Source: Oscillospiraceae bacterium (GTDB taxonomy: Bacteria; Bacillota; Clostridia; Oscillospirales; CAG-382). From it: a stretch of DNA of 64,000 nucleotides. The position numbers and the translations under genes are program-made. The stretch covers positions 84,113 to 148,112 of the forward strand of contig SVRI01000002.1 of NCBI GenBank assembly GCA_015064895.1. Reading direction: 5' to 3'. The notes below the pieces were generated by a model that searched no databases, had not been told where the DNA came from, and worked only from the letters and a program-made list of their open reading frames with translations. Below are positions 6,967 through 49,113 of this stretch, piece by piece. Numbering within the stretch: the stretch's first letter is position 1; every line of letters starts with the position of its first letter.

Positions 6967-7842
6967 TCAGCAAAGAAAATCAAGTGATACGCCGTTATAG
7001 TAATATTTGAGAATATCAATATAACTCATGCCGTCACATGCAAAAATATTGGCACCGTACTGACTCATGCCGACTCTGTGTCCCATTCCCGATGACGAAA
7101 CCTCGATTTCCCCTTCGGGTGATTTTACCGAACGCAGATACTCTACCCTGCCGCCCCACACATCTTCGCTGTCGAGTGTTCCCTCACCGCTTGAAGCGTG
7201 GTATACAGCTTCTATGGGTTCTCCATCATATACAATAATTATTCCCCTTGTAGCATTTACGGCACTTTTGAGCTTATCAAGGTTTTGTGCCGTAACACCT
7301 GCACTTTCCGGCAGTACAAAATTCTGACAACAGGCGGGATTTGTGCACACATCCGCATTTTTATGCTTTGATTTGCCCAGTGCCTGTCTTACAGCGAAAG
7401 TACGTGCTGCAACGCTTTGCGCCATAATTGCCTGTGCCTCAAAGTAAAGCGGCATTTCTCCAAGCACGCATGCAGTTACATATTCTTCAAGCGGCATTTC
7501 TGTTACGGTATTATTGTCCTGCAAAACTCTGACTTTATCGCATTTTATGCCTTTTGGGGAAGTATTTGTGTTAGAATAAACGTTTTTTGCATTATTTCGT
7601 AATGGATTATTCATTTCTGTAATCGCGTTCATACTCTTGTTTTGGGTATTAAAGCAGTAAACATCACTTGTTTCGGCAAAGGATGTTTGGGGTGATTTGG
7701 AAGCGAAACGGCTTGGTGTTGAAAAGCCGTTATCACGTAAAAACGTCACAATTGAGACTATTGCCGCCGAAAATGCAAGTATCGCTGCAATGACTCGTGC
7801 CACAGGAATTTTCTTTTTCGGCTTTTGTAAATAATTTTGCAT
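6967..7842 (-). CDS. spoIID: stage II sporulation protein D (SpoIID/LytB domain)
   Basis: 291 aa with an N-terminal membrane anchor. Matches include AQAIMAQSVAARTFAV, VCTNPACCQNF, YHASSGEGTLDSEDVWG and GHRVGMSQYGA. Confidence 0.85.
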   Translation of the reverse strand: MQNYLQKPKKKIPVARVIAAILAFSAAIVSIVTFLRDNGFSTPSRFASKSPQTSFAETSDVYCFNTQNKSMNAITEMNNPLRNNAKNVYSNTNTSPKGIKCDKVRVLQDNNTVTEMPLEEYVTACVLGEMPLYFEAQAIMAQSVAARTFAVRQALGKSKHKNADVCTNPACCQNFVLPESAGVTAQNLDKLKSAVNATRGIIIVYDGEPIEAVYHASSGEGTLDSEDVWGGRVEYLRSVKSPEGEIEVSSSGMGHRVGMSQYGANIFACDGMSYIDILKYYYNGVSLDFLC

Positions 7843-10311: not shown

Positions 10312-10810
10312 AAGTCAGCGAGTTTTTTGCTTGCTGGCTTTTTTATATTATTCTTTCTGTACTTTTGCCCCGATGCAAAAGTACCAAAAAATCTCCACTC
10401 AAAAAGAGGGGATGGCTCATTCGGGAGGAATAAAGTACAAAAAGGCAAATTTTGACTAGGACAAATGAAACCAAACACTTCTACGAAGCCGTCAAAATTT
10501 GAACATCTACAAACTTCAATGATACTGCCGCCCTCATTCCGCTGACTTCCCCTCTTTCGCCGTGGTGGCTTAACTTCCCTCTCTTGGTGTTGGTGCAAAT
10601 CTGAAGTAAATTCGGTTGGTTGGATTGAATGTGTTCAGCCGATGTATCCCAAGCGATGCCGGGTGCGTTTTCGCGGAAATAAGGTTTGAAACTCTGTAAA
10701 CACTTACCCGCGTTGTGAGAGGTAAGCCGCCGCAGGTCGGGAAAGCCCGACCACCGCAGTGACGAAATACTCCTCTATGTACAAAGAAAGGCGTACCGAA
10801 GTACGCCTTA
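10312..10810 (+). repeat. family A large modular structured repeat, copy 1 (candidate ncRNA or MITE-like element)
   Basis: Collinear with the minus strand of 49111-48692 and partly with 16487-16716. Parts: H0 terminator-like hairpin 10312-10340; H1 gtacttttgc/gcaaaagtac 10359-10384; helix aaagagggga (10403-12) with tcccctcttt (10548-57); inner helix caaattttgac (10445-55) with gtcaaaatttg (10491-501); helix 10564-10583 with 10717-10733; hairpin gtcgggaaagcccgac 10736-51; terminal hairpin 10787-10810. Confidence 0.75.
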
Positions 10811-14649: not shown

Positions 14650-14785
14650 CCTACTTTCTCTTTCGCAGAGAAAGTAGGCAAAGAGAACTCGCATTTTGCA
14701 CCTTTCTGCAAAGATTTAATATTCTGTTTATCACTCGATTGGTTTACCGTTCGACCGCCATATATCCAAGCGGTCGAACTCATTA
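14650..14785 (-). repeat. family B bipartite hairpin element, copy B1 (the entire whiA-dnaE intercistronic region)
   Basis: Minus-strand reading: TAATGAG, then hairpin 1 (gttcgaccg / loop cttggatatatgg / cggtcgaac, 14779-14749), about 70 nt, then hairpin 2 (cctactttctct / gcgaa / agagaaagtagg, 14678-14650). It aligns end to end with 21084-20947. Confidence 0.8.
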
Positions 14786-16486: not shown

Positions 16487-16810
16487 ATTTCTGTTCTTTT
16501 GTCCCGAAACAAAAGAACCAAAAATTCTCCACTCAAAAAGAGGGGATGGCTCATTCGGGAAAAGCAAAATGCAAAAAGGCAAATTTTGACTAGGACAAAT
16601 GAAACCAAATACTTCTACGAAGCCGTCAAAATTTGGGTATCGTCAAACTTCATTTATACTGCCGCCCGCCTTGCGCTGACTTCCCCTCTTTCGCCGTGGC
16701 GGCTTAACTCCTCTCACTGTTTGTGCGACACCAATGATTGGCGAACAAATAAAATTTCCCGTGAATTTGCTGTCGGGCTTTCCCGACCCGTGGCGGCTTA
16801 ACTCCTCTCA
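16487..16810 (+). repeat. family A modular structured repeat, copy 2
   Basis: H1 gttcttttgt/acaaaagaac at 16493-16518. Helix aaagagggga (16537-46) with tcccctcttt (16682-91). The 23-nt motif ccgtggcggcttaactcctctca occurs twice as a perfect direct repeat (16694-16716, 16788-16810). Hairpin gtcgggctttcccgac at 16772-87 is the inverse complement of 10736-51. Confidence 0.75.
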
Positions 16811-16837
16811 TTCAGTGTAGTGCAAGATATAATGATG

Positions 16838-17058: not shown

Positions 17059-19080
17059 ATGAAAAAACGAGTTATTATTCTGTTATCACTCTTAATGTGT
17101 CTGTTTTTTGCTTTTTCCACATCTGCAACTGTAGTAGATTCCGGAACTTGCGGTGATAATTTAACATGGACTTTTGATGATATAGGAACGCTTACTATCA
17201 GTGGTACGGGGGATATGTATAATTGGCGGTTCGAAGATGCTGAGCCAGAGTACGATGCACCGTGGTATCGTTACAGAGAAACGATAGATAATGTTATTGT
17301 AGAAGCAGGTGTAACAAGCATAGGTAATCAGGCGTTTAGTTGCTTCCGACTTGTATTATATTATGAAAGCATAGGCGGTCCTCTTACAAGCATAAGCATT
17401 CCCGATACCGTGGTAAAAATCGGTGAACGGGCATTCGAACATTGTTCAAGCCTTGAATCAATAGTAATTCCAAACAGTGTAACCAGTATTGGAAATAGAG
17501 CGTTCAATTGTTGTACAAGCCTTAAAGAGATATTCATTCCTGCAAGTGTAACAAGCCTTGGACGTCAAGTGATCGGGGGACTAGTAAGCCAAGACGAGGT
17601 GATTTACGATTACGCTGAAGGAGACTTTGGCGGCACTGTACTCGGAGGTTGCACAAGTCTTGAAAGCATTACAGTTGATTCAAACAATAAAATGTATTCT
17701 AATGATGAAAGAGGTGTTTTATTTAATAAGGACAAAACAATACTTATTAAATACCCTATCGGAAATAAAGCAACTTCTTATAAAATCCCCGACGGCGTAA
17801 CAATCATTGGCAGAGGTGCATTCGAAGGTTGTTCAAATCTTAAGGAAATAATTATTCCTGAAGGTGTAACATGTATAAGCAGTTATGCATTCGAAGGTTG
17901 TTCAAATCTTAAGGAAATAATTATTCCTGAAAGCGTAATAAGCGTTGACTACGGGGCGTTCGAAGATTGCACAAACCTCGAAAGCGTTGATGTTGGAAAT
18001 AGCATAACAATCATTGATGAAAGTGCGTTTGACGGTTGCACAAGCCTTAAAAACATAACTGTTGCTGAAAATAACGAGTTATATTCAAAAGATGAAAGAG
18101 GTGTTTTGTTTAATAAGGACAAAACAATACTTATAAAATATCCAGTTAAAATTGAAGGAACTTCTTATGAAATTCCCGACGGTGTAACAAAAATTAACGA
18201 TTACGCATTCAAAGGATGCACAAGTCTTGAAGAAGTATTAATTCCTGACGGTGTAACAAGTATTGGATATTCTGCTTTCGAGGATTGCACAAGACTTAAA
18301 GCAATAGTCATTCCCGACAGTGTAACGGGTATTGGTGAACGTGCGTTTTATGGTTGTACAAATCTTAAAAGTGTAAAAATTGGTAGTAGAGTAACAAATA
18401 TAGGTGGTATGTACGCATTTGCATTTTGCACAAGTCTTGAATCGATAGAAATTCCCGAAAGCGTCACATACGTAGGGCAATTTTCATTTATGTATTGTAG
18501 GAATCTAAAAAAAGCAACTGTTTTGAGCAGAAATGCAGAATTCAGTTTTAGTATAGATGACGTGTTTGGACGTTCAAATCCCGTCATCTACGGCTACAAA
18601 GGTTCAACGGCGGAAACGGAAGCAAAAGAATACAACCGCCCGTTTGTTGCCCTTTCCGCCACCCCCACAAACGCAAAAGTACTCATCAACGGCAAAGAAG
18701 TTGCATTTACAGCCTACAACATCGGCGGCAACAACTACTTCAAACTCCGTGATGTTGCAATGGCACTAAACGGCAGTGAAAAGAATTTCAACGTAGGTTG
18801 GGACAGCACCAACAATGCAATTTCTCTTACTTCAAACCAAAGCTACACATCGGTCGGCGGCGAACTCATTGTTGATGCAAATGCTACCTCAACAGAACCT
18901 ATCGTTACAAATTCAAGAGTTTACAAGGATAGCGAGCCCGTTTCATTCATTGCGTTCAACATCGGTGGAAACAACTACTTCAAGCTTCGTGATATTGGCA
19001 AAGCTTTTGATTTCGGTATCGGTTGGGACAATGAGACTAAAACCATTACCATTGACACAAGCATAGGTTATACCGAATAA
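17059..19080 (+). CDS. secreted BspA-type leucine-rich-repeat surface protein with two C-terminal stalk-like repeats
   Basis: ORF 17008..19080 trimmed to ATG 17059 (AGGAGG 7 nt upstream; signal peptide MKKRVIILLSLLMCLFFAFSTSA). About 15 units of the ~23-aa repeat IP..V..IG..AF..C..L. The C-terminus has two copies of a module ..NGK/S..V.F.A(Y/F)NIGGNNYFKLRD.. resembling copper-amine-oxidase-N-like stalk domains. Confidence 0.8.
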   Translation: MKKRVIILLSLLMCLFFAFSTSATVVDSGTCGDNLTWTFDDIGTLTISGTGDMYNWRFEDAEPEYDAPWYRYRETIDNVIVEAGVTSIGNQAFSCFRLVLYYESIGGPLTSISIPDTVVKIGERAFEHCSSLESIVIPNSVTSIGNRAFNCCTSLKEIFIPASVTSLGRQVIGGLVSQDEVIYDYAEGDFGGTVLGGCTSLESITVDSNNKMYSNDERGVLFNKDKTILIKYPIGNKATSYKIPDGVTIIGRGAFEGCSNLKEIIIPEGVTCISSYAFEGCSNLKEIIIPESVISVDYGAFEDCTNLESVDVGNSITIIDESAFDGCTSLKNITVAENNELYSKDERGVLFNKDKTILIKYPVKIEGTSYEIPDGVTKINDYAFKGCTSLEEVLIPDGVTSIGYSAFEDCTRLKAIVIPDSVTGIGERAFYGCTNLKSVKIGSRVTNIGGMYAFAFCTSLESIEIPESVTYVGQFSFMYCRNLKKATVLSRNAEFSFSIDDVFGRSNPVIYGYKGSTAETEAKEYNRPFVALSATPTNAKVLINGKEVAFTAYNIGGNNYFKLRDVAMALNGSEKNFNVGWDSTNNAISLTSNQSYTSVGGELIVDANATSTEPIVTNSRVYKDSEPVSFIAFNIGGNNYFKLRDIGKAFDFGIGWDNETKTITIDTSIGYTE

Positions 19081-20767: not shown

Positions 20768-20946
20768 GGTAAATACAGTCCTTTCTTTCGGATATGACAA
20801 TACCGCCATCACGCAAAAAAGCATGACGGCGGCAGAAAGTACGTATTTACTCTTTTAAAAGGCGACAGTGAGCCGAAGTGAATACGTCTTTCTGCGATTT
20901 ATGTAATTGTAAAGGCAACTTCGCCCGTCCGTACTCATTCTACTCA

Positions 20947-21084
20947 CCTACTTTTTCTTTCGGAGAAAAAGTAGGCAAAAAGAACTCACACTTAGCTCGT
21001 TCCTGCCATTATCTTTCTCCGATTTTTTGTTTCTCAAATTGTTTTACGTCTGTGTGCCATAAATCCAAGCACACAGGCTCATTA
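20947..21084 (-). repeat. family B bipartite hairpin element, copy B2 (in the mgtE leader, just after mutS)
   Basis: Minus-strand reading: TAATGAG, then hairpin 1 (gcctgtgtg / cttggatttatgg / cacacagac, 21078-21048), then hairpin 2 (cctactttttct / ccgaa / agaaaaagtagg, 20975-20947), followed by TGA. Confidence 0.8.
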
Positions 21085-23716: not shown

Positions 23717-23802
23717 TTTTTTACCCGACCTTTTTTTCTGAAATATAATTTTGGCATCTCCAAAAATGCCAAATGATGAATTAGGAATAAGCAAAGAGTT
23801 TG

Positions 23803-23940
23803 GTCGGTCGGATTTATGCCGACCAAACGGGGTTATTTATGCGACACCGATGGCATGTTTTCGACAAAACATGCCCCGTGAATTCTTTTCTTTTTTGCTG
23901 ACTTTTTTCTTTTCAGCAAAGAAAAAAGTCAGTGGCAGCC
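23803..23940 (+). repeat. family B bipartite hairpin element, copy B3 (opposite orientation to B1 and B2)
   Basis: Plus-strand reading: GAG, then hairpin 1 (tttggtcgg / tcggatttatg / ccgaccaaa, 23807-35), ACGGGG, a middle hairpin at 23860-83 closed by acgggg/ccccgt, then hairpin 2 (ctgacttttttcttt / tcagc / aaagaaaaaagtcag, 23906-40). Confidence 0.7.
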
Positions 23941-26704: not shown

Positions 26705-26745
26705 CTTGAGTTTGCATCGTAGCGTTTATGCGATGCAAACGGGGT
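26705..26745 (+). repeat. family B hairpin-1 module only, copy B4
   Basis: tGAGtttgcatcg / tagcgtttatg / cgatgcaaaCGGGGTTA (stem 26709-17 with 26729-37). The flanks and loop match 23803-23845, but the stem sequence is different and still complementary. Confidence 0.65.
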
Positions 26746-26762
26746 TAGTTACGCGATTAATA

Positions 26763-27569
26763 TTATTTGTTCTTATCAGAAGCTTTGCCCGCGAAATTGC
26801 CTGCGGCGGCTCGCCGTGCAATAAAATGCAATCTTTCATTTACATTTTCGTCTGCCCCTGAAAAGTCCATGCCGCCGAAAGAGTATACCTTTTCAAAGCC
26901 TGCTTCCTTAAGGTATGCACGTATATTCTTTTCGGTATACATCCTTTCCTTATTATCTTCATCGTGGCGTGAGTATGTACCGTCTTCGTTTTCGATAAAG
27001 AATGAAAGATAAAAATCGCAGATTTTCTTTTCTTCATCATAGAAGTTCTGCCATGCACAGAGTACCCCATCATCTTCAAGGACATAAGCATTGTCGGCAT
27101 AGATATTTTCAAACTTATACTTTGAGTTTACGTCAAAGACAAACACACCGCCGTCGACAAGTATATCGTATGCACTCTTAAAGCATTCCTTGACGCTTTT
27201 GGGAGTCAGCAGGCAGTTTACGCTGTCAAGAAGGCAGATTACGGCACCCGCTTTATTTGAAGCTGTAAACGAGCACATATCCTGTTTTGCGAAAATTACA
27301 TTTCTGCATCCCTTTTCAAATGCCTTGTTGTCGGCAATTGACAGCATATCCTCCGAAAGGTCGCTGGCGGTAACTTTATAACCGCGTTTTTCAAGTTCAA
27401 TGGCAACGCTACCCGTACCGCATGCAATTTCGCAAACGTGTTTTACCTCACACTCTGCATACTTTTCAAAGCATTCTTCACAAAAGTCTGCCCAATCTTT
27501 CGGGTCAACATCGGCGTTGAGTCTGTCGTAAACTTCAGACAGATACTGTCCGTAGCCTTTATTCTTCAT
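26763..27569 (-). CDS. class I SAM-dependent methyltransferase
   Basis: 268 aa. Motif I VCEIACGTGSVAIELEKRGYKVTASDLSEDML. Substrate unknown. Confidence 0.75.
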   Translation of the reverse strand: MKNKGYGQYLSEVYDRLNADVDPKDWADFCEECFEKYAECEVKHVCEIACGTGSVAIELEKRGYKVTASDLSEDMLSIADNKAFEKGCRNVIFAKQDMCSFTASNKAGAVICLLDSVNCLLTPKSVKECFKSAYDILVDGGVFVFDVNSKYKFENIYADNAYVLEDDGVLCAWQNFYDEEKKICDFYLSFFIENEDGTYSRHDEDNKERMYTEKNIRAYLKEAGFEKVYSFGGMDFSGADENVNERLHFIARRAAAGNFAGKASDKNK

Positions 27570-29632: not shown

Positions 29633-29676
29633 AGCAATTGTAATGCTTTTTATTTAATTCAAAGGAGTTGTTTGTT

Positions 29677-31089
29677 TTGAAATTGAAACGAATATTATTT
29701 GTTTTACTTGCATTTATTTCACTTCTTGCCATTTGCTCCTGCAAAAAAGATGAAGACAAAAAATCTACATACGTTCCTGTAGCAGGTGACGAATACTGGC
29801 TCGGTCACAATCCTCAGGAAGACATGAAAGGTTATCAATTCAGAATTCTTTCCAGAAAAGGCATGAAAAGCGATCAGTATGCTGAAGAACAGACCGGTGA
29901 CATTATCAACGATGCCATTTACAAGAGGAACGAAACTGTAAAGGGTTATTTCAACTGTGATGTCGTTTCAATTGAAAGCTCATCAGGCAGTGCCGATGAT
30001 GCCATCAACTCCATTCTTGCGGGTGATGACCAGTATGACATCATTTTCCCTCACTCAAGATCAGCATTCCAGTATGCTGTTCAGGATGCTCTTGTAAATT
30101 TCAATGACATAAAAACCATCCACCTTGACAAGTCCTGGTGGTCGCAGGATATTATTGATTCATGTAATGTAAACGGACATCTTTACGTTCTTGACGGCGA
30201 TATCTCCACACACAGACTTCAGTATGCATTCTGTATGTTCTTCAACAAGAGAATCTTTGACGAACTCGGTATTGAATATCCTTACCGGATGGCTCTTGAC
30301 GGCACATGGACATTTGATGAGTTTTCAAAGCTTGTAAAGAAGGGTTCAAAGGACCTCAACGGTGACGGTATTCTTAAGCCCGAAGACGACCAGTTCGGTT
30401 ATTACACAAGTAACTGGTACGGACCTATCAACGTACTTTATACGGGCGGTCAGAGAATTTATTCCAAAAATGCGGCAGGAGTACCTTATATATCTCTCAA
30501 TTCCAACAAGACTGTGGAAATTTTCTCAGAATTCTTTAAGCTTACCGATTCCGACGATGTCTATATTTACAATCAGATAAGCAATGAAAGCGACCCTGCA
30601 GGAAATCCCTTCAATGAAGGCCGTTCAATGTTTGCAGACAAGGGCCTTGGTAATGCGAAGGCTATGAGAAGCATGAACGACGAATTCGGTATTCTCCCTT
30701 GGCCCAAGTTCACCGAGGAAGACGTATATGCAACTGTAGTAAACGGTCATGCAAGCCTTATGGTTATGCCTATAACCGTTGCTGACAAACAGAAATCCGG
30801 TAAAATTATCGAAGCACTCTGTGCTATCGGTAACAAGGAAGTTATTCCTGCATTCTACGATGTATCACTTAAAACAAAATTCTCTAGAGACGCCGAATCC
30901 GAAGCAATGATTGATATCATAAAAGATTCCATCATCTACGACCTCGGTTACGTTTCCGGCGGTGTATTGAATTCTGTAGGTTCGTCACTTTCCAAGAGCA
31001 GCAACCATGACTTCGCTCAATTCTATGCTCAGAACGAATCCAAGGCTCAGTCAGACCTTCAGAGCTTCCTTGAAGCTTACGGTTCATAA
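29677..31089 (+). CDS. ABC-type extracellular solute-binding lipoprotein (family-1 SBP-like), paralog 1
   Basis: ORF 29668..31089. TTG 29677 is the best start (AAAGGAG 9 nt upstream) and gives MKLKRILFVLLAFISLLAICSC with a lipobox. SBP-like features: NKRIFDELGIEYP..DGTWTFDEFSKLVKKGSKDLNGDG. Confidence 0.8.
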   Translation: MKLKRILFVLLAFISLLAICSCKKDEDKKSTYVPVAGDEYWLGHNPQEDMKGYQFRILSRKGMKSDQYAEEQTGDIINDAIYKRNETVKGYFNCDVVSIESSSGSADDAINSILAGDDQYDIIFPHSRSAFQYAVQDALVNFNDIKTIHLDKSWWSQDIIDSCNVNGHLYVLDGDISTHRLQYAFCMFFNKRIFDELGIEYPYRMALDGTWTFDEFSKLVKKGSKDLNGDGILKPEDDQFGYYTSNWYGPINVLYTGGQRIYSKNAAGVPYISLNSNKTVEIFSEFFKLTDSDDVYIYNQISNESDPAGNPFNEGRSMFADKGLGNAKAMRSMNDEFGILPWPKFTEEDVYATVVNGHASLMVMPITVADKQKSGKIIEALCAIGNKEVIPAFYDVSLKTKFSRDAESEAMIDIIKDSIIYDLGYVSGGVLNSVGSSLSKSSNHDFAQFYAQNESKAQSDLQSFLEAYGS

Positions 31090-31101
31090 TATTAAGATTT
31101 G

Positions 31102-31134
31102 AAAGCCCGTTTTCCAACGGGCTTTTCTTTTTTT
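31102..31134 (+). terminator. Rho-independent terminator after SBP paralog 1
   Basis: aaagcccgt (31102-10) pairs with acgggcttt (31117-25), followed by tcttttttt. Confidence 0.8.
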
Positions 31135-31225
31135 CGATTTATTATTTTTTTACAATTTGTTATCCGCATTCTAACAAAGTGGTGTTAATGTATAGTGAGA
31201 GTTAGGCTTTTTAGGGGGTAATATT

Positions 31226-32632
31226 TTGAATATTAAGAGTATTTTTTTAATCCTTCTTGCGGTATTATCTATTTTTGCTGTCAGCTCATGCAAGAAGAAA
31301 GACTCCGGAATTTCTACATACGTTCCTGTTGCCGGTGATGAGTACTGGCTGGGTCACAATCCGCAGGAAGATATGGACGGATATCAATTCAGAATCCTTT
31401 CGAGAAAAGGCATGAAAAGTGACCAGTATGCAGAAGAAGAAACCGGCGATATTATCAATGATGCAGTTTTCAAAAGAAATGAAACGGTAAAGGGTTATTT
31501 CAACTGCGACATCATTACAATAGAAAGCTCTACAAACAAGGCCGACGATGCCATCAACTCAATCCTTGCAGGCGATGACCAGTATGACATTCTTCTTCCC
31601 CACTCAAGATCGGCTTTCCAGTATGCAATCCAGGATGCACTTGTTAACTTCAACGATGTAAAGACAATCGATACATCCAAGGATTGGTGGTCGAAGGATA
31701 TTATTGACTCCTGTAACATAAACGGTTATCTCTACGTTCTTGACGGTGACATCTCTACCCACAGACTTGAATACGGCTTTGCCATGTACTTCAACAAGAG
31801 GATTTTTGACGAGCTTGGTCTTGAATATCCTTATCAGATGGCTATTGACGGTACATGGACATTTGACGAATTTTCAAAGCTCGTAAAGAAGGGTTCAAAG
31901 GACCTCAACGGCGACGGTCTCATCAAGCCCGAGGACGACCAGTACGGTTACTATTCATGGCATGCCTTCGGACCCATTCAGGTGCTTTATACGGGCGGTC
32001 AGAGAATCTATTCCAAGAGTGCTACGGGTGTTCCCTATCTTTCTTTAAACTCAACAAAAACTTTAAATCTTTATTCCGATTTCTTCAGACTTTGCGATTC
32101 CGATGACGTATTACTCTGTGCTGCACAGAATGCTCCGTCAGAAAATTTATTCACTGCAGGACGTGCAATGTTCGCAGACAACGGTCTCGGTCAGGCAAAA
32201 ACATTTAGAAACATGAGCGATGAATTCGGTATTCTCCCCTGGCCCAAGTACACAGCAGAAGATGAATACAAGACAGTTATCAACGGTCATGCAAGCCTTC
32301 TCGTTATGCCCATCACTGTTCCGGACAAGCAAAAATCGGGCAAGATTATCGAAGCACTCTGTGCTCTTGGCAACAAAGAAGTAGTTCCTGCTTTCTATGA
32401 TGTATCTCTTAAAACAAAGTTTTCGAGAGACGCCGAATCCGAAGCAATGATTGATATTATCAGAGACTCTCTCATATATGACCTCGGCTATGTTTCGGGC
32501 GGTACATTCCAGAATGTCGGTGAAAGACTTGCATCAATGGGTAACCGTGACTTTGCCTCCTATTATGCACAGAACGAATCCAAGGCTCAGACAGATCTTC
32601 AGAACTTCCTCGCATCCTACGGCAAATTATAA
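31226..32632 (+). CDS. ABC-type extracellular solute-binding lipoprotein, paralog 2
   Basis: 468 aa. TTG start with AGGGGG 7 nt upstream. Signal and lipobox MNIKSIFLILLAVLSIFAVSSC. Full-length alignment with paralog 1. Confidence 0.8.
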   Translation: MNIKSIFLILLAVLSIFAVSSCKKKDSGISTYVPVAGDEYWLGHNPQEDMDGYQFRILSRKGMKSDQYAEEETGDIINDAVFKRNETVKGYFNCDIITIESSTNKADDAINSILAGDDQYDILLPHSRSAFQYAIQDALVNFNDVKTIDTSKDWWSKDIIDSCNINGYLYVLDGDISTHRLEYGFAMYFNKRIFDELGLEYPYQMAIDGTWTFDEFSKLVKKGSKDLNGDGLIKPEDDQYGYYSWHAFGPIQVLYTGGQRIYSKSATGVPYLSLNSTKTLNLYSDFFRLCDSDDVLLCAAQNAPSENLFTAGRAMFADNGLGQAKTFRNMSDEFGILPWPKYTAEDEYKTVINGHASLLVMPITVPDKQKSGKIIEALCALGNKEVVPAFYDVSLKTKFSRDAESEAMIDIIRDSLIYDLGYVSGGTFQNVGERLASMGNRDFASYYAQNESKAQTDLQNFLASYGKL

Positions 32633-32644
32633 AATGCAACAGCA

Positions 32645-32677
32645 AAAGGCTTGTCTTACGGCAAGCCTTTATTTTTG
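32645..32677 (+). terminator. Rho-independent terminator after SBP paralog 2
   Basis: aaaggcttg (32645-53) pairs with caagccttt (32662-70), followed by atttttg. Confidence 0.8.
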
Positions 32678-32706
32678 TACATTTTTTATTCTTTACAAAT
32701 TAGATG

Positions 32707-32735
32707 TTGACTACAGTGAAAAAACTGTGTAAAAT
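32707..32735 (+). promoter_or_regulatory. promoter of SBP paralog 3
   Basis: TTGACT (32707-12), 17 nt, then TAAAAT (32730-35). Confidence 0.6.
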
Positions 32736-32769
32736 ACAATATGAAGTTCATATTTAGGAGGTATATCCT

Positions 32770-34179
32770 TTGAGAATCAAAAGATTATCATGTATTCTTC
32801 TTGCCGTAGCATCTTTATTTATAATCAGTGCGTGCAAGAAAGATGACAAAGACAGAACCACATACGTTCCTGTAGCCGGTGACGAATATTGGTTAGGTCA
32901 CATTGAACAGGAAGACATGCAGGGATATCAGTTCAGAATACTTTCAAGAAAAGGCATGGTAGATGACCAGTATGTTGAAAAAGAAACAGGCGATATCATC
33001 AACGATGCCGTCTACAAGAGAAATGAAACGGTAAAGGGATATCTTAATATCGACATAGTTTCAATCGAAAGTTCCACTGACACCGCGTCCGACGCAATCA
33101 ACTCAATTCTTGCGGGCGATGACCAGTATGACGTAATGTTCCCCCACTCAAGAGCGGCTTTCCAGTATGCTGTTCAGGATGCACTTGTAAACTTCAATGA
33201 CATTAAAACAATTGACACCTCTAAACCCTGGTGGTCACAGGATATCATAGATTCATGTAATGTAAACGGACATCTTTATGTTCTTGACGGCGACATTCAG
33301 ACTGACAGACTTTTCTATGCGTTCTGTATGTTCTTCAACAAGAGAATCTTTGACGAGCTGGGTGTTGAATATCCTTACCAGATGGCACTTGACGGCACAT
33401 GGACATTTGATGAGTTTTCAAAGCTTGTAAAGAAGGGCTCAAAAGACCTCAACGGTGACGGTTTGCTCAAGCAAGAAGAAGACCAGCTCGGCTACTACAC
33501 AAGAGAATGGTACGGTCCTATCCAGGCACTTTATTCGGGTGGACAAAGAATCTATTCCAAGGATGCAAGAGGCATACCCGTTCTCTCACTCAACTCCAAT
33601 AAAACAGTTGATATTTTCTCCGATTTCTTCAAGCTCGCCGACTCAGATGACGTTTTCCTTCAGTTGACTCCCGGAAGACTTGCAAAGGAAGACTTATTCC
33701 CTGTAGGACGTGCAATGTTTGCAGACAGAGGTCTCGGCTCTGCCCAGGCACTCAGAAGTATGGATGACGAATTCGGTATTCTCCCCTGGCCAAAGTTTTC
33801 TGCCGATGATGAATACAAGACGGTGGTTAACGGTCATGCATGTTTACTTACAATGCCCATCACTGTTCCCGATAAGCAGAAGTCAGGTAAGATTATTGAA
33901 GCCCTCTGTGCCCTCGGCAACAAGGAAGTACTTCCTGCATTCTATGAAGTATCACTAAAGACCAAGTTCTCTAGAGATGCCGAATCCGAAAAGATGATTG
34001 ACATTATCAAGGACTCCATTATCTACGACCTCGGTTACGTTTCCGGCGGTACAATGAACTCGGTCGGTGCTACTCTTGCTCAGAGTAACAACCATGATTT
34101 CTCTCAGTTCTATGCACAGAATGAATCAAAGGCTCAGACAGACCTTCAGAGTTTCCTTAAATCCTACGGTAAAATGTAA
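32770..34179 (+). CDS. ABC-type extracellular solute-binding lipoprotein, paralog 3
   Basis: 469 aa. TTG start with AGGAGG 8 nt upstream. MRIKRLSCILLAVASLFIISAC. Confidence 0.8.
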   Translation: MRIKRLSCILLAVASLFIISACKKDDKDRTTYVPVAGDEYWLGHIEQEDMQGYQFRILSRKGMVDDQYVEKETGDIINDAVYKRNETVKGYLNIDIVSIESSTDTASDAINSILAGDDQYDVMFPHSRAAFQYAVQDALVNFNDIKTIDTSKPWWSQDIIDSCNVNGHLYVLDGDIQTDRLFYAFCMFFNKRIFDELGVEYPYQMALDGTWTFDEFSKLVKKGSKDLNGDGLLKQEEDQLGYYTREWYGPIQALYSGGQRIYSKDARGIPVLSLNSNKTVDIFSDFFKLADSDDVFLQLTPGRLAKEDLFPVGRAMFADRGLGSAQALRSMDDEFGILPWPKFSADDEYKTVVNGHACLLTMPITVPDKQKSGKIIEALCALGNKEVLPAFYEVSLKTKFSRDAESEKMIDIIKDSIIYDLGYVSGGTMNSVGATLAQSNNHDFSQFYAQNESKAQTDLQSFLKSYGKM

Positions 34180-34184
34180 TTTTC

Positions 34185-34211
34185 AAACTCCCCTTTTTGG
34201 GGAGTTTTTTT
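34185..34211 (+). terminator. Rho-independent terminator after SBP paralog 3
   Basis: aaactcccc/ggggagttt followed by a T-run. Nearly identical to the terminator at 36104-36132. Confidence 0.85.
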
Positions 34212-34212
34212 A

Positions 34213-34241
34213 TTGACTCATTCATGAAACAGTGATATAAT
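34213..34241 (+). promoter_or_regulatory. promoter of SBP paralog 4
   Basis: TTGACT (34213-18), 17 nt, then TATAAT (34236-41). Confidence 0.65.
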
Positions 34242-34265
34242 CTATTACAATAAGGAGGTTTGATT

Positions 34266-36098
34266 ATGAAAAACATTCGCAAACTGACACTTACATTACT
34301 TTTAATCTCACTTATAGTTTCAATTATCGCATGTACTTCTGCAGATACAAAGGAAACAGATCCGGAGGATGCTGTATGGGAAGGCTATGATGATGTTGAG
34401 TTTGTTAAGTTTCTGGGAAACAGCAGTGCAGATGAGGTAGAAGTCACGGTAAAGGAAGGTTGGGGCAAGTCGGATGAGCTTAACGAAGAAGATGACTTAT
34501 CCGAGGATGCAAAGGCTTATACATACACCTATGAGCGTGTTTCGGGCAAAGATATTGTAGAAAAAATCCACTTTTTTATGATTCTTGAAGACAATGAGCT
34601 TACGCCTGCGGGTTGTTACAACGAAACCACCCATGAGGAGCTGGACAAAGGCGACACCGAGGATATACTCGAAGGGCTGATTGACGAATTTGAACTGTAC
34701 AACGAAAAGAAAAGCTCAAGCAACAATAGTAATTATCCCGACAATAACAATGCAGAATCTTTACGTCCCAACAATACAACATATCTTCCTAATTCAGGCT
34801 ATGAAAACTGGCTTGGTCACATTGAACAGGAAAACATGGACGGTTATACGTTCAGAATCCTTTCAAGAAAAGGCATGGTAGATGACCAGTATGTTGAAGA
34901 AGAAACAGGTGACATTGTCAACGATGCTGTCTACAAAAGAAACGAAATTGTAAAGGGTTACTTCAATATTGACATTGTTTCAATCGAAAGCTCCACTGAC
35001 ACAGCTTCCGACGCAATCAACTCAATTCTTGCGGGCGATGACCAGTACGATATCATGTTCCCTCACTCAAGAACAGCATTCCAGTATGCTGTTCAGGATG
35101 CTCTTGTCAATTTCAATGATGTATACACAATCGATACATCAAAAGAATGGTGGTCACAGGATATTGTTGACTCATGTAACGTAAACGGTAACCTTTACGT
35201 ACTTGACGGTGATATCTCAACTCACAGACTTTATTACTGCTTTGCAATGTACTTCAACAAGAGAATATTTGATGAACTCTGTCTTGAATATCCCTATCAG
35301 ATGGCTCTTGACGGCACATGGACATTTGACGAATTCTCAAAGCTTGTAAAGAAGGGTTCAAAGGACCTCAACGGTGACGGTCTTCTCAAGCAGGAAGATG
35401 ACCAGCTCGGCTATTATACAAGAGAATGGTTCGGTGCAATTCAGGTTCTTTATTCAGGTAACCAGAGAATCTACTCAAAGGATGCAAGAGGAATTCCGAG
35501 ACTTTCGCTTAATACACCTAAAACAGTTCAGTTGTTTTCCGACTTCTTTAAACTGACCGATTCCGATGATGTATTCATGCAGATTTCACCCGGAAATCTC
35601 GCAAAGGAAGACTTGTTCCCTGCAGGTCGTGCAATGTTTGCAGACAAGGGTCTCGGCTCTGCTCAATCACTCAGAAGCATGGACGATGAATTCGGTATCC
35701 TTCCCTGGCCTAAGTTCTCTGAAGAAGATGAGTATGAAACGATTGTAAACGGTCATGCAAGCCTTATGGTTATGCCCATCACTGTTCCGGACAAACAAAA
35801 ATCCGGTAAGATTGTAGAAGCACTCTGTGCCATCGGTAACAAGGAAGTTATTCCTGCATTCTACGAAGTATCACTTAAAACAAAATTCTCTAGAGACGCC
35901 GAATCCGAAGCAATGTTTGATATCATAAAAGATTCCATCATCTACGACCTCGGTTACGTTTCGGGAGGTACAATGAACTCTGTTGGTGCTACTCTTGCTC
36001 AGAGAGACAACCACGATTTCTCTCAGTTCTATGCACAGAATGAATCAAAGGCTCAGTCAGACCTTCAGAACTTCTTAAGCTCTTACGGTAAAATGTAA
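34266..36098 (+). CDS. ABC-type extracellular solute-binding lipoprotein, paralog 4, with an extra ~150-aa N-terminal region
   Basis: ATG 34266 (GGAGG 7 nt upstream). MKNIRKLTLTLLLISLIVSIIAC. About 150 aa of acidic, unique sequence and an S/N-rich linker precede the SBP body shared with the other paralogs (from ..YLPNSGYENWLGH). Confidence 0.8.
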   Translation: MKNIRKLTLTLLLISLIVSIIACTSADTKETDPEDAVWEGYDDVEFVKFLGNSSADEVEVTVKEGWGKSDELNEEDDLSEDAKAYTYTYERVSGKDIVEKIHFFMILEDNELTPAGCYNETTHEELDKGDTEDILEGLIDEFELYNEKKSSSNNSNYPDNNNAESLRPNNTTYLPNSGYENWLGHIEQENMDGYTFRILSRKGMVDDQYVEEETGDIVNDAVYKRNEIVKGYFNIDIVSIESSTDTASDAINSILAGDDQYDIMFPHSRTAFQYAVQDALVNFNDVYTIDTSKEWWSQDIVDSCNVNGNLYVLDGDISTHRLYYCFAMYFNKRIFDELCLEYPYQMALDGTWTFDEFSKLVKKGSKDLNGDGLLKQEDDQLGYYTREWFGAIQVLYSGNQRIYSKDARGIPRLSLNTPKTVQLFSDFFKLTDSDDVFMQISPGNLAKEDLFPAGRAMFADKGLGSAQSLRSMDDEFGILPWPKFSEEDEYETIVNGHASLMVMPITVPDKQKSGKIVEALCAIGNKEVIPAFYEVSLKTKFSRDAESEAMFDIIKDSIIYDLGYVSGGTMNSVGATLAQRDNHDFSQFYAQNESKAQSDLQNFLSSYGKM

Positions 36099-36103
36099 TT
36101 TTC

Positions 36104-36132
36104 AAACTCCCCTTTTTTGGGGAGTTTTTCTT
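36104..36132 (+). terminator. Rho-independent terminator after SBP paralog 4
   Basis: aaactcccc-tttttt-ggggagttt followed by ttc tt. Confidence 0.8.
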
Positions 36133-36182
36133 ATTTCAGCAATACCAAACAACTTTCTTAATATTGATGAAACAAAAAATCG

Positions 36183-36211
36183 TTGATATGTTAACAGAAT
36201 TTTGGTATAGT
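36183..36211 (+). promoter_or_regulatory. promoter of SBP paralog 5
   Basis: TTGATA (36183-88), 17 nt, then TATAGT (36206-11). Confidence 0.6.
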
Positions 36212-36250
36212 TATGGTGTATTGCAAGAATTTATTAAGGAGGTACATACC

Positions 36251-37660
36251 TTGAAAATCAAAAGATTGCTTTGTTTTGCTGCCCTGATTCTCTCAGTTGT
36301 TGCTTTCAGTGCATGTAAAAACGAGGATGAAGAAATATCCAAGTACATTCCTAATGCCGGCGATGAATATTGGCTCGGTCACATCCCACAGGAAAACATG
36401 GACGGTTACGAATTCAGAATCCTTTCAAGAAAAGGCATGGTAGATGACCAGTATGTTGAAGAAGAAACAGGTGATATCATCAACGATGCCGTTTTTAAAA
36501 GAAATGAAACAGTAAAGGGTTACTTTAACATTGACATTGTTTCAATTGAAAGCTCCTCCAATACTGCGGATGATGCTATCAGTTCCATCCTTGCAGGTGA
36601 TGACCAGTATGACATCATGCTGCCCCACTCAAGAACAGCATTCCAGTATGCTATTCAGGATGCACTCGTAAACTTCAACGATATCAAAACAATCGATACA
36701 TCAAAAGAATGGTGGTCTCCCGATATTATCGACTCTTGTAACGTAAACGGACATCTTTACGTTCTCGACGGCGATATTTCTACTCACAGACTTTACTACT
36801 GCTTTGCGATGTACTTCAACAAGAGAATCTTTGATGAACTCGGTCTTGAATATCCTTATCAGATGGTTTTGGATAATAACTGGACATTTGACGAATTTTC
36901 AAAGCTCGTAAAGAAGGGTTCAAAGGACCTCAACGGTGACGGTCTTCTCAAGCAGGAGGACGACCAGCTCGGCTATTATACAAGAGAATGGTTCGGTGCA
37001 ATTCAGGTTCTTTATGCAGGTAACCAGAGAATTTACGCAAAGGATGCCGCAGGCATTCCCAGACTTACACTTAACTCTCCTAAGACAGTTCAGGTATTCT
37101 CTGACTTCTTCAAGCTCGCCGACTCCGACGATGTATTCCTTCAGATTTCACCCGGTAAGGTTGCTAAGGAAGACTTGTTCCCTGCAGGTCGTGCAATGTT
37201 CGCCGATAATGACCTTGGTCAGGCTCAGCAGCTCAGAGCCATGGATGACGAATTCGGTATTCTCCCCTGGCCTAAGTTCTCTGCCGATGATAAGTATGAA
37301 ACAGTTGTAAACGGTCATGCAAGCCTTCTTACAATGCCTATCACGGTTCCCGATAAGCAGAAGTCAGGCAAGATTATTGAAGCGCTTTGTGCTCTCGGTA
37401 ATAAGGAAGTTATTCCCGCGTTCTACGAAGTATCTCTTAAGACAAAGTTCTCAAGAGATACAGAATCCGAAAAGATGATTGACATTATCAAGGACTCTAT
37501 CATCTACGACCTCGGTTACGTTTCCGGCGGTACAATGAACTCTGTTGGTGCTACTCTTGCAAATCAAAGCAATCATGACTTTGCTCAGTTCTATGCTCAG
37601 AACGAATCAAAGGCTCAGGTTGACCTTCAGAACTTCTTAAGCTCTTACGGTAAAATGTAA
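36251..37660 (+). CDS. ABC-type extracellular solute-binding lipoprotein, paralog 5
   Basis: ORF 36164..37660 trimmed to TTG 36251 (AAGGAGG 8 nt upstream), which gives MKIKRLLCFAALILSVVAFSAC, matching the N-termini of the other paralogs. The upstream part of the ORF overlaps the promoter. Confidence 0.8.
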   Translation: MKIKRLLCFAALILSVVAFSACKNEDEEISKYIPNAGDEYWLGHIPQENMDGYEFRILSRKGMVDDQYVEEETGDIINDAVFKRNETVKGYFNIDIVSIESSSNTADDAISSILAGDDQYDIMLPHSRTAFQYAIQDALVNFNDIKTIDTSKEWWSPDIIDSCNVNGHLYVLDGDISTHRLYYCFAMYFNKRIFDELGLEYPYQMVLDNNWTFDEFSKLVKKGSKDLNGDGLLKQEDDQLGYYTREWFGAIQVLYAGNQRIYAKDAAGIPRLTLNSPKTVQVFSDFFKLADSDDVFLQISPGKVAKEDLFPAGRAMFADNDLGQAQQLRAMDDEFGILPWPKFSADDKYETVVNGHASLLTMPITVPDKQKSGKIIEALCALGNKEVIPAFYEVSLKTKFSRDTESEKMIDIIKDSIIYDLGYVSGGTMNSVGATLANQSNHDFAQFYAQNESKAQVDLQNFLSSYGKM

Positions 37661-37671
37661 AACATAATATT

Positions 37672-37706
37672 AAAACCTCATGCTTTAATCAGCATGAGGT
37701 TTTTTC
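37672..37706 (+). terminator. Rho-independent terminator after SBP paralog 5
   Basis: acctcatgct (37675-84) pairs with agcatgaggt (37691-700), followed by ttttt. Confidence 0.85.
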
Positions 37707-37716
37707 TGTATAAATT

Positions 37717-38160
37717 AAAACCGAAACTAACGTGTAGTCTCGGTTTTGCCGCGGGGCTTCCCCTTACAAAACACATAGTCTTTTGCCTGAGTTTGTCCGC
37801 TTTCGTTTATGGCGGACAAACGGTACTTCACTCGGGCAATAAAAAAACAAAACCGAAACTAGAGTATAGTCTCGGTTTTGCCGCGGGGCTTCTCCTTACA
37901 AAACACATAGTCTTTTGCCTAAGTTTGTCCGCTTTCGTTTATGGCGGACAAACGGTGATTCACTCGGGCAATAAAAAAATAAACCGAAACTAGAGTATAG
38001 TCTCGGTTTTGCCGTGGGGCTTCCCCTTACAAAACACATAGTCATTTGCCTGAGTTTGTCCGCTTTCGTTTATGGCGGACAAACGGTGCTTCACTCGGGC
38101 AATAAAAAAATAAACCGAAACCAACGTGTAGTCTCGGTTTTGCCGTGGGGCTTCCCCCAC
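37717..38160. repeat. tandem array, 3 full units plus 1 partial unit of 131-132 bp, directly abutting the 3' end of tRNA-Val
   Basis: Unit starts (aaaccgaaac..) at 37718, 37850, 37981 and 38112. Units are near-identical. Each holds an 11-bp hairpin aaaccgaaact/agtctcggttt (on the minus strand this is followed by atttttttatt, which is terminator-like) and a family B hairpin-1 module (tttgtccgc / tttcgtttatg / gcggacaaa at 37792-37820, 37924-52 and 38055-83). Confidence 0.9.
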
Positions 38161-38236
38161 TGGTGGACGATAAGGAACTCGAATCCCTGACCACTCGCAC
38201 GTCAAGCGAGTGCTCTACCAACTGAGCTAATCGTCC
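38161..38236 (-). tRNA. tRNA-Val (anticodon GAC), CCA encoded
   Basis: Manual cloverleaf: acceptor GGACGAT/ATCGTCC; D-arm GCTC-AGTTGGTA-GAGC; anticodon arm CTCGC-TTGACGT-GCGAG (GAC at 34-36); variable loop TGGTC; T-arm AGGGA-TTCGAGT-TCCTT; then A-CCA. Total 76 nt. Confidence 0.9.
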
Positions 38237-48512: not shown

Positions 48513-49113
48513 TCGTTCTTTTGTCCCGAAACAAAAGAACCAAAAATTCTCCGCTCAAAAGGAGAGAGGGCTCGGTTGAGGTTATGGCAAAGACGGAAAA
48601 GGTTCGTCTTGACCACGGGATGGGTCAAGACTCAGGTTCGCAATAAGTAAGCTTTCGCAATCTCAACCTACGCTGACTTCTCTCCTTTGCCGCGGCGGCT
48701 TACCTCTCACAACGCGGGTAAGTGTTTACAGGATTTAAGCCTTAATTATCGCGAAAATGCCAAAGACATAACTTGGTATACTCTGTTTAACCACATTTAA
48801 TCCAACCAACCGAATTAACTTTGAATTTGCACCAACACCAAGAGAGAGGAGTTAAGCCGCCACGGCGAAAGAGGGGAAGTTAGCGGAATGAGGGCGGCAG
48901 TATCATTTAAGTTTGAAGAAATTCAAATTTTGACGGCTTGGTAGAAGTAGCTTGTTTCATTTGTCCTAGTCAAAATTTGCCTTTTGTACTTTGCTTTTCC
49001 CGAATGAGCCATCCCCTCTTGTTGAGTGGGCGTTTTTGGTACTTTTGTCGATACAAAAGTACAGAAAAAGAATAAACACAAAAAAGCCAGCAAGCACAAA
49101 CTTACTGGCTTTT
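48513..49113. repeat. family A modular structured repeat, copy 3: two diverged units in inverted orientation around a shared 135-nt core
   Basis: Unit b is on the plus strand at 48515-48708. The core is 48709-48843. Unit a is on the minus strand at 49062-48844, with the H0 hairpin at 49084-49111. See the findings for helices and covariation. Confidence 0.8.

Follow-up and report, generated by a model that had tools for sequence, protein, structure and literature searches.

Mosaic hairpin repeats dispersed and turning over between the genes of uncultured animal-gut Clostridia

Introduction

In a 64,000-nucleotide (nt) stretch of the genome of an Oscillospiraceae bacterium (assembly GCA_015064895.1, contig SVRI01000002.1, positions 84,113 to 148,112; hereafter the window), an earlier note, made from the letters alone, had pointed to a hairpin that occurs seven times with complementary stems of unrelated sequence and a constant loop and flanks. 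This raises the question of what kind of element keeps its pairing and its loop while its stem sequence changes, and on which molecule, RNA or DNA, the hairpin is maintained. The window itself (GC content 41.6%) encodes WhiA, YlbF, MiaB, Hsp33, an SLH protein and SpoIID, which identify the host as a Firmicute/Clostridium-like bacterium, and a MiaB identical to that of the window is also found on 23 metagenome contigs. In this work, we have found that the hairpin, here called H1, belongs to mosaic repeats that have become dispersed over dozens of intergenic sites in single genomes of a clade of uncultured Clostridia from animal guts. We are highly confident that H1 is one module of a new family of dispersed mosaic intergenic repeats that turns over between species.

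Results and Discussion

The hairpin H1 in the window

We have built a covariance model, R1, from 52 distinct H1 copies and run it over the whole window with the filters off. Seven matches were obtained (49.5–59 bits, E values from 6e-14 to 3e-11), which are the seven copies claimed before, and no H1 copy beyond these seven was found in the window. The next-best match, at 14.7 bits, is merely the opposite strand of the same seven sites. In addition, the pattern GAG-N14-TNTATG-N9-CG, which is blind to the stem, matches the window 6 times against 0.12 expected, a number that is reached in none of 100 shuffles, and the same seven sites, together with two weak hairpins that are unrelated, came out of an independent scan for hairpins ending in TWTATG. 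When folded with DNA parameters, the H1 hairpins have energies of -7.9 to -12.2 kcal/mol, with z values between -3.1 and -5.9 against shuffles. Both the hairpin, which is far from random, and the covariation of its stem, described below, are real.

The H1 stem consists of 10 Watson-Crick pairs with a constant T·G on top, not of the 9 bp proposed earlier. That is, the geometry can be described as 11 bp with a 9-nt loop or as 10 bp with an 11-nt loop. The constant parts are the loop, T-N4-TTTATG, and the foot, GAG/CGG; over the 52 unique cores, GAG is invariant on the 5' side, and the 3' side reads CGG or CGT. The module had been said to begin with GAG, but the middle copy of the tandem array C (see below) starts with AAG.

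Copies in other genomes and covariation of the stem

An exact-pattern scan with GAGTTTG-N10-TTTATG-N5-CAAACGG, over one genome per species, finds H1 at 86 or more loci of at least 13 metagenome-assembled genomes (MAGs) of uncultured Clostridia. Since the pattern fixes 20 bases, only about 1 chance match per 1.2e12 positions is expected. The family counts derived from the scan are lower bounds. Among the matches listed, all hosts are MAGs of uncultured Clostridia, Oscillospiraceae, Eubacteriales or Feifaniaceae, and those with a stated source come from ruminant guts. The copy number within a genome is high, with at least 28 exact-pattern matches in RGIG8792 and at least 22 loci in CAZTNR01. The earlier note had proposed a genome-wide pattern search; in other genomes, such a search brings out many further copies.

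In this sample, the five stem base pairs left free by the pattern are fully Watson-Crick complementary in ~38 of 50 unique cores, and there are more than 11 stem alleles, including ACCGC, GTCGG, CGTTG, CATCG, CGTGC, TGCGG, ACTGC, ACAGC, TGCAC, CATTG and TCCGC. In the alignment of 52 sequences, 97.6% of the cells are paired and double changes occur in 7 of the 11 pairs. The covariation score is 0.42, compared with 0.108 in shuffles (0 of 500 reach 0.42) and no more than 0.135 for slid partners. The covariation signal noticed in the window is therefore real, and it becomes very strong once other genomes are added. We have also run R1 on the loci fetched from other genomes (numbered with L below) and obtained 113 copies, of which 12 lie outside the scan pattern and were ascertained solely through their proximity to a pattern match. 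In these 12, the lower stem is compensatory too (GTCTG/CAGAC, GTCTT/AAGAC, GCTTTG/CAAAGC).

As for known families, Rfam at the gathering threshold finds only tRNA-Val in the whole window, and at E<=10 nothing in 14000–39000 overlaps any of the seven copies, so the Rfam comparison that had been suggested yields no family for any of them. A BLAST search with two elements against annotated plasmid and phage collections gave no match either.

Among the matches listed, a single viral contig, from IMG/VR, bears the element, with three H1 copies in one intergenic gap. This contig (L004; 2935–4062 and 9700–10100) is of a genuine phage, with a BppU-like baseplate protein and an M23 peptidase, and it also encodes a 375-aa reverse transcriptase, possibly that of a diversity-generating retroelement.

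Module structure of the family

The earlier note overlooked that H1 forms only the distal part of a larger, mosaic element. The elements are non-coding, ~110–150 bp long, and composed of H1, a middle hairpin (M2a, M2b, M2c or M3) and a terminal hairpin (T1 or T2); the similarity between copies begins at (T)GAG and extends 75–110 nt past the hairpin. M2a reads ACGG-linker-GCGACACCGA-variable hairpin-CCCGTGAATT, M2b reads ..TTCGGGCA-variable hairpin-GTCCCGAA, M2c reads ..TTTCGCG...CGCGAAA, and M3 reads ..AATCGAG...AAAGGTGACAAATKCGAGTTC. T1 is a 6-bp GC stem with a 3–4-nt loop, and its covarying alleles include GTCGGG/CCCGAC, GCGGCG/CGCCGC, GCGGGG/CCCCGC and GCGGTG/CACCGC. T2 is a hairpin of 10–16 bp with one pyrimidine arm and one purine arm. 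Stem alleles, M types and T types combine freely across loci. The RNAalifold consensus of 33 M2a-type elements contains H1 and part of T1; conservation of the middle of this type is mainly at the sequence level (blocks GCGACAC and CCGYGAA), with no one clear helix.

In the T2 copies (window 14650–14678, 20947–20975 and 23898–23932, and copies at the loci), the pyrimidine arm reads CCTACTTTCTC / CTTACTTTCTCTTT. This arm resembles the 3' end of 16S rRNA (the anti-Shine-Dalgarno), and the purine arm resembles an extended Shine-Dalgarno (SD) sequence, so that T2 reads alike on both strands.

Of the elements in the window, B3 (23796..23934, plus strand, R1 57 bits) consists of GAG, H1, M2a and T2 (23898–23932). 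Its hairpin had been placed at 23807–35 and actually spans 23798–23828 (stem 23798–23808 / 23818–23828), with GAG at 23796–98. Its M2a is formed by ACGGGG..GCGACACCGA, a variable hairpin at 23844–23867 and CCCCGTGAATT. As claimed, B3 is antisense to the surrounding operon, ylbF-mutS, and the ylbF stop codon (23929–31) lies within an arm of what had been called its second hairpin, that is, of the last hairpin T2. B4 (26708..26817, plus strand, R1 51.2 bits) is likewise antisense to its operon, methyltransferase-hslO, and the methyltransferase stop (26763–65) is within the element. It had been taken for the first hairpin alone, but over ~26708–26817 it carries H1 (stem 26710–26720 / 26730–26740), an M2-like module (GGGGTTAGTTACGCGA ... 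CCCGCGAAATT) and T1 in the form of a GC hairpin (~26803–26817).

The elements A1 and A2 lie in the sense direction, which bears out the claim that copies occur in both orientations relative to transcription. A1 (14650..14781, minus strand, R1 56.4 bits) has H1 (14779–14749), M3 (..AATCGAG..GCGAGTTC) and T2 (14678–14650); it is located between the whiA stop (14783) and the dnaE ATG (14641), and the purine arm of its T2 continues into the dnaE SD AGGTGA. A2 (20947..21080, minus strand, R1 49.5 bits) has H1 (21078–21048), M3 and T2 (20975–20947) and is located downstream of the mutS stop (21110), its T2 adjoining the SD and ATG (20938) of a conserved 27-codon open reading frame (ORF) upstream of mgtE. 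The imperfect pair of its H1, previously described as G-U, is actually a C·A mismatch, and only 8 bp fold there. The stretch between A2 and mgtE (20824–20945, minus strand) is conserved and opens with this 27-codon ORF (MSTDGRSCLYNYINRRKTYSLRLTVAF), which is preceded by a good SD; over the aligned part (~45 nt, counted from the ATG), L019 has nearly the same sequence. The Rfam scans of the window detected no M-box riboswitch ahead of mgtE.

The C array (37709..38160, plus strand) contains 3.4 tandem units of 131–132 bp, each in the order hairpin AAACCGAAAC..GTCTCGGTTT, T1 (GCGGGGcttCCCC), TTGCCTGAG, H1, CTCGGGCAA, with the H1 copies at 37789–37823, 37921–37955 and 38052–38086. Its last T1 (38145–38160) adjoins the CCA end (38160/38161) of the gene for tRNA-Val(GAC) (38161..38236, minus strand) and touches the 3' end of that gene. 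Because the array lies between the bidirectional terminator of the upstream gene (37672–37703) and minus-strand terminators after tRNA-Val (38140–38112, 38009–37981 and 37882–37846), it should be largely outside transcripts. The only terminator-scoring hairpin of the C units is the inner one, on the minus strand. Finally, M2a and T1 occur without H1 at 16722..16787 (plus strand; TGTTTGTGCGACACC ... CCCGTGAATTTGCT GTCGGGctttCCCGAC), inside a copy of a ~390-nt repeat, X, and this shows that modules occur independently of H1.

A multi-hairpin unit of ~110–150 nt, its tandem arrays that look like multicopy small RNA (sRNA) loci, and the M3-type copies in 5' untranslated regions (UTRs) could all be read as a riboswitch, a ribozyme or an independently transcribed sRNA family. 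We regard this as very improbable, since Rfam gives no match even at E<=10, a promoter is neither carried nor conserved upstream, the downstream genes are functionally unrelated, both orientations are present, the consensus fold is conserved only in the H1 and T stems, and T1 and T2 are without U tracts. Even further from the evidence, to the point of being hardly credible, are the ideas that small ORFs start at the loop ATG (MxxKR...) or that H1 is a palindromic operator for paralogous dimeric DNA-binding proteins. The ATG at the loop end is indeed invariant, the translations start with M-x-x-K/E/R-R, and the arms are symmetric like operator half-sites. On the other hand, the ORFs range from 5 to more than 20 codons, the linker and the middle hairpin carry indels, there is no SD before the ATG, and residues 2–3 merely mirror the stem; we have rejected a coding role of the ATG on the variable ORF lengths and the indels. 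An operator would leave the asymmetric conserved spacer, the attached M and T modules and the copy number all unexplained.

Turnover between species

We have compared orthologous loci of the window elements and of other elements in other species, where the coding DNA is 78–90% identical. A2, over ~145 bp, is wholly absent at the orthologous site in L019, and B4 is absent at its orthologous site in L060. The loci L042 and L072 form a clean pair of a filled and an empty site. At the A1 site of L019, H1 has TTTG/CAAA where A1 has TTCG/CGAA, a compensatory change from C-G to T-A, and the element there continues with M2a and T1 in place of M3 and T2. L025 and L039 carry different alleles and modules at one site, L014 and L056 carry elements in opposite orientation, and at other sites the partners hold H1-like hairpins that have diverged and differ in foot and loop. 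In the filled/empty comparisons (A2 against L019, and L042/L072), the junctions are marked by neither a duplication nor an inverted terminal repeat. Clearly, the elements are gained, lost, replaced and inverted among close relatives, and modules and alleles recombine freely. B3 is present in L060 as well, with H1, linker and T2 almost invariant between flanks that are ~88% identical.

Overall, this fits the broad kind of repeats represented by BIME, BOX, ERIC, NIME and MIRU, namely non-coding, multi-copy, modular, structured, lineage-restricted and insertion-polymorphic. With more than 100 copies, discrete perfect alleles, a constant loop, module shuffling and many filled and empty sites, the family is a clean natural experiment, in which one can ask how hairpin repeats spread and whether selection or template switching keeps their stems paired.

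Position relative to genes

The elements are found in 3' UTRs, intercistronic spacers, 5' UTRs and untranscribed gaps. According to orientation classes that are based on crude ORF calls, H1 copies between co-directional genes are antisense in 37 cases and sense in 20, while 11 copies lie between convergent and 7 between divergent genes. The M3-type copies differ from the others in that all classifiable ones are sense and directly 5' of a ribosome-binding site, with the T2 purine arm entering the SD. The genes behind them are dnaE, argH (twice), hisS and a small ORF ahead of mgtE, together with a putative argJ that was read from its first residues. In the non-M3 types, the T end faces the 3' end of a gene on the opposite strand, and this end of the element proved to be flush against ORF ends, a point that had also been overlooked before. 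The distance from H1 to the stop codon clusters at 63–118 nt because it equals the length of M plus T.

In most cases, the last paired base of T1 or T2 falls within the reverse complement of a stop codon or precedes it. Of the 51 genes that face a T end, 21 have a perfect hairpin of 6 bp or more that begins at -1..+1 nt relative to the stop, compared with 16 of 357 others, and several of the latter 16 belong to sister elements with the distal hairpin CCCGACTGTC-aaacac-GACAGTCGGG. Examples in the window are at 23929–23932 and 26763–26765, and those elsewhere include L025, L033, L038, L070 and L088. T1 also adjoins the CCA end of two tRNA genes, the tRNA-Val of the window and a tRNA in L046. Since the T1 flank shows no conserved triplet outside convergent contexts, the stop codon is not itself part of the element. 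In the L042/L072 pair, the element occupies precisely the junction of the stop codon with the old 3' UTR, which contains the canonical terminator, and a terminator-like hairpin with a T tail also lies beyond B3. Being placed between the stop and the canonical terminator of the gene, both elements should be transcribed.

Several simple readings of the elements were tried and rejected. T1 and T2 are not terminators, because they have no U tracts and genuine terminators are found past the elements; T runs are absent after H1, T1 and T2 on either strand, as an intrinsic terminator would need. H1 is not the 5' end of an sRNA with its own promoter, as the logo of its 5' flank contains neither -35 and -10 boxes nor a conserved target, only a T at -1 (77%) and weak A/T preferences, such as a weak T at -7/-8. 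GC skew was no guide to replication position, for it just tracks gene orientation.

The main rival to the DNA-level reading given below, sustained by the flush junctions and the sense-only M3+T2 copies, is that the T-M-H1 unit is selected as RNA, i.e., as a cis-acting UTR element. In such a case, a ribosome that terminates at the stop (or initiates at the SD) would melt the hairpin there, translation would be coupled to 3'-end protection, to stalling and trans-translation or to downstream initiation, and the binding partner of H1 would be an RNA-binding protein or an RNase. The excess of T hairpins within -1..+1 nt of stops, the contact of T1 with two CCA ends, the transcribed elements B3 and L042, the uniformly sense M3+T2 copies immediately 5' of ribosome-binding sites, the anti-SD-like and SD-like arms of T2 and the near-invariance of B3 between species all agree with this. 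A parallel may exist in E. coli, where REP (repetitive extragenic palindromic) sequences less than 15 nt from a stop codon reportedly lower expression via ribosome stalling (work attributed to Liang, Rudd and Deutscher, 2015). Although possible, we find it rather doubtful. The same H1 alleles and loop appear in the mRNA or in its complement, so the loop cannot be read as one RNA sequence; G·U pairs are tolerated no more than A·C; the C copies lie beyond terminators on both sides; and the elements come and go at housekeeping genes, with no gene-specific logic apparent.

Pairing chemistry and a possible DNA-level mechanism

Of the 1200 H1 stem pairs that we have counted in 120 copies, 1181 are Watson-Crick, and the remaining ones are G·T (4), A·C (8) or other combinations (7). 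A comparison of G·T with A·C as a test of strand shows no asymmetry in H1. Wobble pairs are thus tolerated no better than mismatches, which is unlike evolving RNA helices. For T1, with 295 Watson-Crick, 6 G·T, 1 A·C and 4 other pairs, the excess of G·T over A·C (6 versus 1) is slight and too small in number to be used. Furthermore, since the same alleles and loop occur in mRNA or in its complement and some copies are untranscribed, a DNA palindrome or a constraint on both strands is favoured, and the asymmetry of the conserved loop and foot suggests that an extruded single-strand hairpin is recognised. Consequently, the protein-binding or ribozyme-like RNA, one of the two readings offered in the earlier note, is not supported as the primary reading: pairing is restricted to the Watson-Crick type, G·T being just as rare as A·C, alleles recur in sense and antisense, and three copies lie between convergent terminators. 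The other suggestion, a single-stranded DNA (ssDNA) hairpin, here taken to be recognised by a structure-specific enzyme, is still the best mechanistic guess, and it has to be set against the lack of any ORF resembling a Y1 or REP-associated tyrosine transposase (RAYT) in the 690 kb searched.

Our tentative reading, which we hold at slightly less than even confidence, is that H1 is a DNA-level hairpin recognised by a trans-acting, structure-specific enzyme. H1 would be constrained as DNA, as a strict Watson-Crick palindrome that could be extruded from either strand, and the single-stranded form would be recognised via the constant loop (T-N4-TTTATG) and the foot (GAG / CGG). The enzyme might be encoded elsewhere in the genome, act in trans, and copy or move the element. 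Nucleases of the HUH type are an established example of recognition with a free stem and a fixed loop, and an HUH/Y1-type nuclease-transposase would be the best precedent here for a variable stem with a constant loop. The discrete stem alleles may then represent lineages from different master copies, with stems kept perfect by selection for extrusion, by quasi-palindrome (template-switch) correction, or by both. Inserted elements would be passively co-transcribed, and some of them, e.g., the sense M3+T2 copies by ribosome-binding sites, may have been co-opted as UTR structures.

Several observations weigh against this DNA-level reading. Neither a regular-expression search nor phmmer with approximate query sequences (best E 0.029) found a Y1/RAYT-like ORF in 690 kb, which comprise the window and the fetched loci and thus a part of each genome, so that this negative carries little weight. 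A Pfam scan of 32 window ORFs, all of them housekeeping genes, yields no candidate enzyme, in line with the earlier statement that the window has no transposase. No conserved target oligonucleotide, terminal inverted repeat (TIR) or target site duplication (TSD) is visible in the flank logo or the filled/empty comparisons. Pairing restricted to Watson-Crick pairs is also what is expected if the hairpin folds in RNA from both strands. The near-invariance of B3 in spite of 12% flank divergence suggests a local function or a recent conversion and not a pure selfish passenger. Most interesting of all, the exact placement of T at stop codons, tRNA ends and ribosome-binding sites is left unexplained by a DNA hairpin, and T flush at stops is predicted by no known DNA transposition mechanism; together with the strictly sense M3+T2 copies by ribosome-binding sites, it hints at a role at the level of RNA or translation. 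As for an autonomous copy, a gene between two divergent H1 copies in L032 was tried and rejected as having no HUH/Y1 motif; its translation looks like that of a glycosidase.

An enzyme could be dispensed with if the elements were functionless palindromic debris, in which modules spread through recombination or slippage, stems are made by template switching and gene conversion, and H1 is recognised by nothing. Strict Watson-Crick pairing with discrete alleles and no G·T intermediates, free module shuffling and tandem arrays, the diverged H1-like hairpins with other loops and feet at orthologous sites, and the enzyme missing from the 690 kb after both searches would all be accounted for. Even so, we consider debris improbable, because the asymmetric TTTATG loop end and the GAG/CGG foot have been kept in ~120 copies and at least 13 MAGs while the stems changed, because 28 or more copies at unrelated sites of one genome need an active spreading mechanism, and because the flush placement at gene ends is non-random.

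Of about the same low probability, in our estimate, is the idea that the flush junctions at stops, CCA ends and SD sequences reflect a new targeting principle. It may take two forms. The first is an ssDNA element that may integrate where nascent RNA leaves the ribosome, e.g., into the single-stranded DNA of R-loops or uncoupled transcription that starts at the stop. The second is a device that may represent a new class of ribosome-contacted UTR structures and may be copied around the genome. In both forms, H1 may serve as the handle for an enzyme. If the placement turns out to be mechanistic, it would be a new link of translation termination to DNA insertion or to mRNA fate.

Comparison with known repeat systems

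REP-like mosaic repeats are well known in Proteobacteria, and in E. coli some REPs are found no more than 15 nt away from a stop codon. The present family resembles REP, BIME (bacterial interspersed mosaic element) and REPIN sequences, which are mobilised by RAYT (Y1/HUH) transposases, in being short extragenic palindromes in tens to hundreds of copies, with subfamilies by stem and loop. Like REP and BIME, it forms mosaic arrays with other short motifs, occupies 3' UTRs and the spaces between operon genes in both orientations, and maintains its hairpin through compensatory change. However, the REP tags GTAG (GTRG) / CGTC, as defined in a 2013 survey (PMC3733652), are absent, the H1 foot being GAG...CGG over the 52 unique cores. 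The H1 loop is long (9–11 nt) and conserved, whereas REP loops are mostly of 2–5 nt; the copies are mostly single or in head-to-tail arrays and not in head-to-head doublets as in REPINs; and the host belongs to Firmicutes/Clostridia, with no RAYT in the 690 kb sampled. The same survey found CGTC repeats in five phyla, Firmicutes not among them; neither Firmicutes nor Clostridi- is mentioned anywhere in its text (PMC3733652). The REP/RAYT literature consulted leaves Firmicutes aside and reports no REP-like mosaic repeats from Clostridia.

The likeness to the PATEs (palindrome-associated transposable elements) of IS200/IS605 and to HUH substrates, such as rolling-circle origins and the stem-loops of circoviruses and geminiviruses, consists in a free stem with a conserved loop and foot, in the lack of TIR and TSD, and in strand-specific ends. 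Unlike in a PATE, there is no 4–5-nt target beside either end (the H1 5' flank and the T1 3' flank), the end hairpins H1 and T1/T2 are unrelated, and none of the genes tnpA, tnpB and rep accompanies the elements. They could not be shown to belong to the IS200/IS605-PATE or REP/RAYT families suggested earlier: the 4–5-nt target, the GTAG/CGTC tag and inverted doublets are all missing, and no Y1/RAYT-like ORF turned up in 690 kb. A classical cut-and-paste MITE (miniature inverted-repeat transposable element) would have terminal inverted repeats and a TSD; the filled/empty comparisons show no TSD, and the ends GAGTTTG... and ...CCCCGC/...GTAAG are not inverted repeats.

Pneumococcal BOX (boxA-B-C), ERIC/IRU, NIME/Correia of Neisseria, bcr1 of Bacillus cereus and mycobacterial MIRU are likewise ~100–150-bp non-coding units with variable modules, inserted in transcribed intergenic regions, sometimes in tandem, and with stable predicted folds; MIRU units are positioned relative to the flanking stop and start codons. 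The differences are that our family shares no sequence similarity with them, has no TA or other duplication, and shows discrete perfect stem alleles with a constant loop and a T hairpin starting exactly at the stop of the opposite-strand gene. The attC sites of integrons also keep structure with free sequence, begin at or within the stop of the preceding ORF and are recognised as a folded single strand. H1 differs from them in its perfectly paired arms GTTTGnnnnn / nnnnnCAAAC, without an R''/R' core (RYYYAAC/GTTRRRY) and without extrahelical bases; the flanking genes are core housekeeping genes and not cassettes, and no integrase was seen.

In practice, these elements fill much of several of the intergenic regions examined, and they will confuse the prediction of sRNAs, terminators and riboswitches in rumen and gut MAGs.

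Neighbouring repeats and other features of the window

Several other repeats accompany the family. The X repeat, which contains the M2a and T1 modules mentioned above, occurs at window 10354–10740 (+), 16488–16830 (+) and 48692–49037 (-). It is ~390 nt long with a core of ~250 nt, its copies are 79–88% identical with frame-breaking indels, and it has a long internal inverted repeat, CGCCGTGGCGGCTTAACTCCTCTC ... GTGAGAGGTAAGCCGCCGC. No Rfam match was found for it at E<=10. Related copies are present in L026, L049, L009, L043, L017, L056 and others, and in at least 9 loci the 3' part of X lies directly 5' of H1. T1 adjoins X in the same way as it adjoins genes. X may be a multicopy non-coding RNA or a larger mobile element.

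The sister family noted above, with a stop-flush T and a middle as here and its own distal hairpin replacing H1, is found at L005 ~7100–7222, L027 7626–7760, L034 ~1270–1410 and L037 2694–2800. A second H1-like hairpin, TTTTGCCGTC-aataagg-cAGACGGCAAAA-TGAG, recurs 5' of H1 copies. In addition, heptamer or octamer tandem repeats, (A)GTGCGGA / GTTAGGA / ATGCGGA, are located directly upstream of H1 at several loci (L060 ~1900–1950; L026, L049, L036 and L040), and in degenerate form at window 23775–23795.

Besides these, the window contains two repetitive coding regions. Five tandem paralogues of ~470–610 aa, with 70–87% DNA identity, lie at 29668–37660 (+) and are solute-binding-protein-like (SBP_bac_8 in the matching contig). 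At 17398–18470 (+), a 69-nt (23-codon) periodic repeat runs within the gene of a 690-aa LRR_5 protein.

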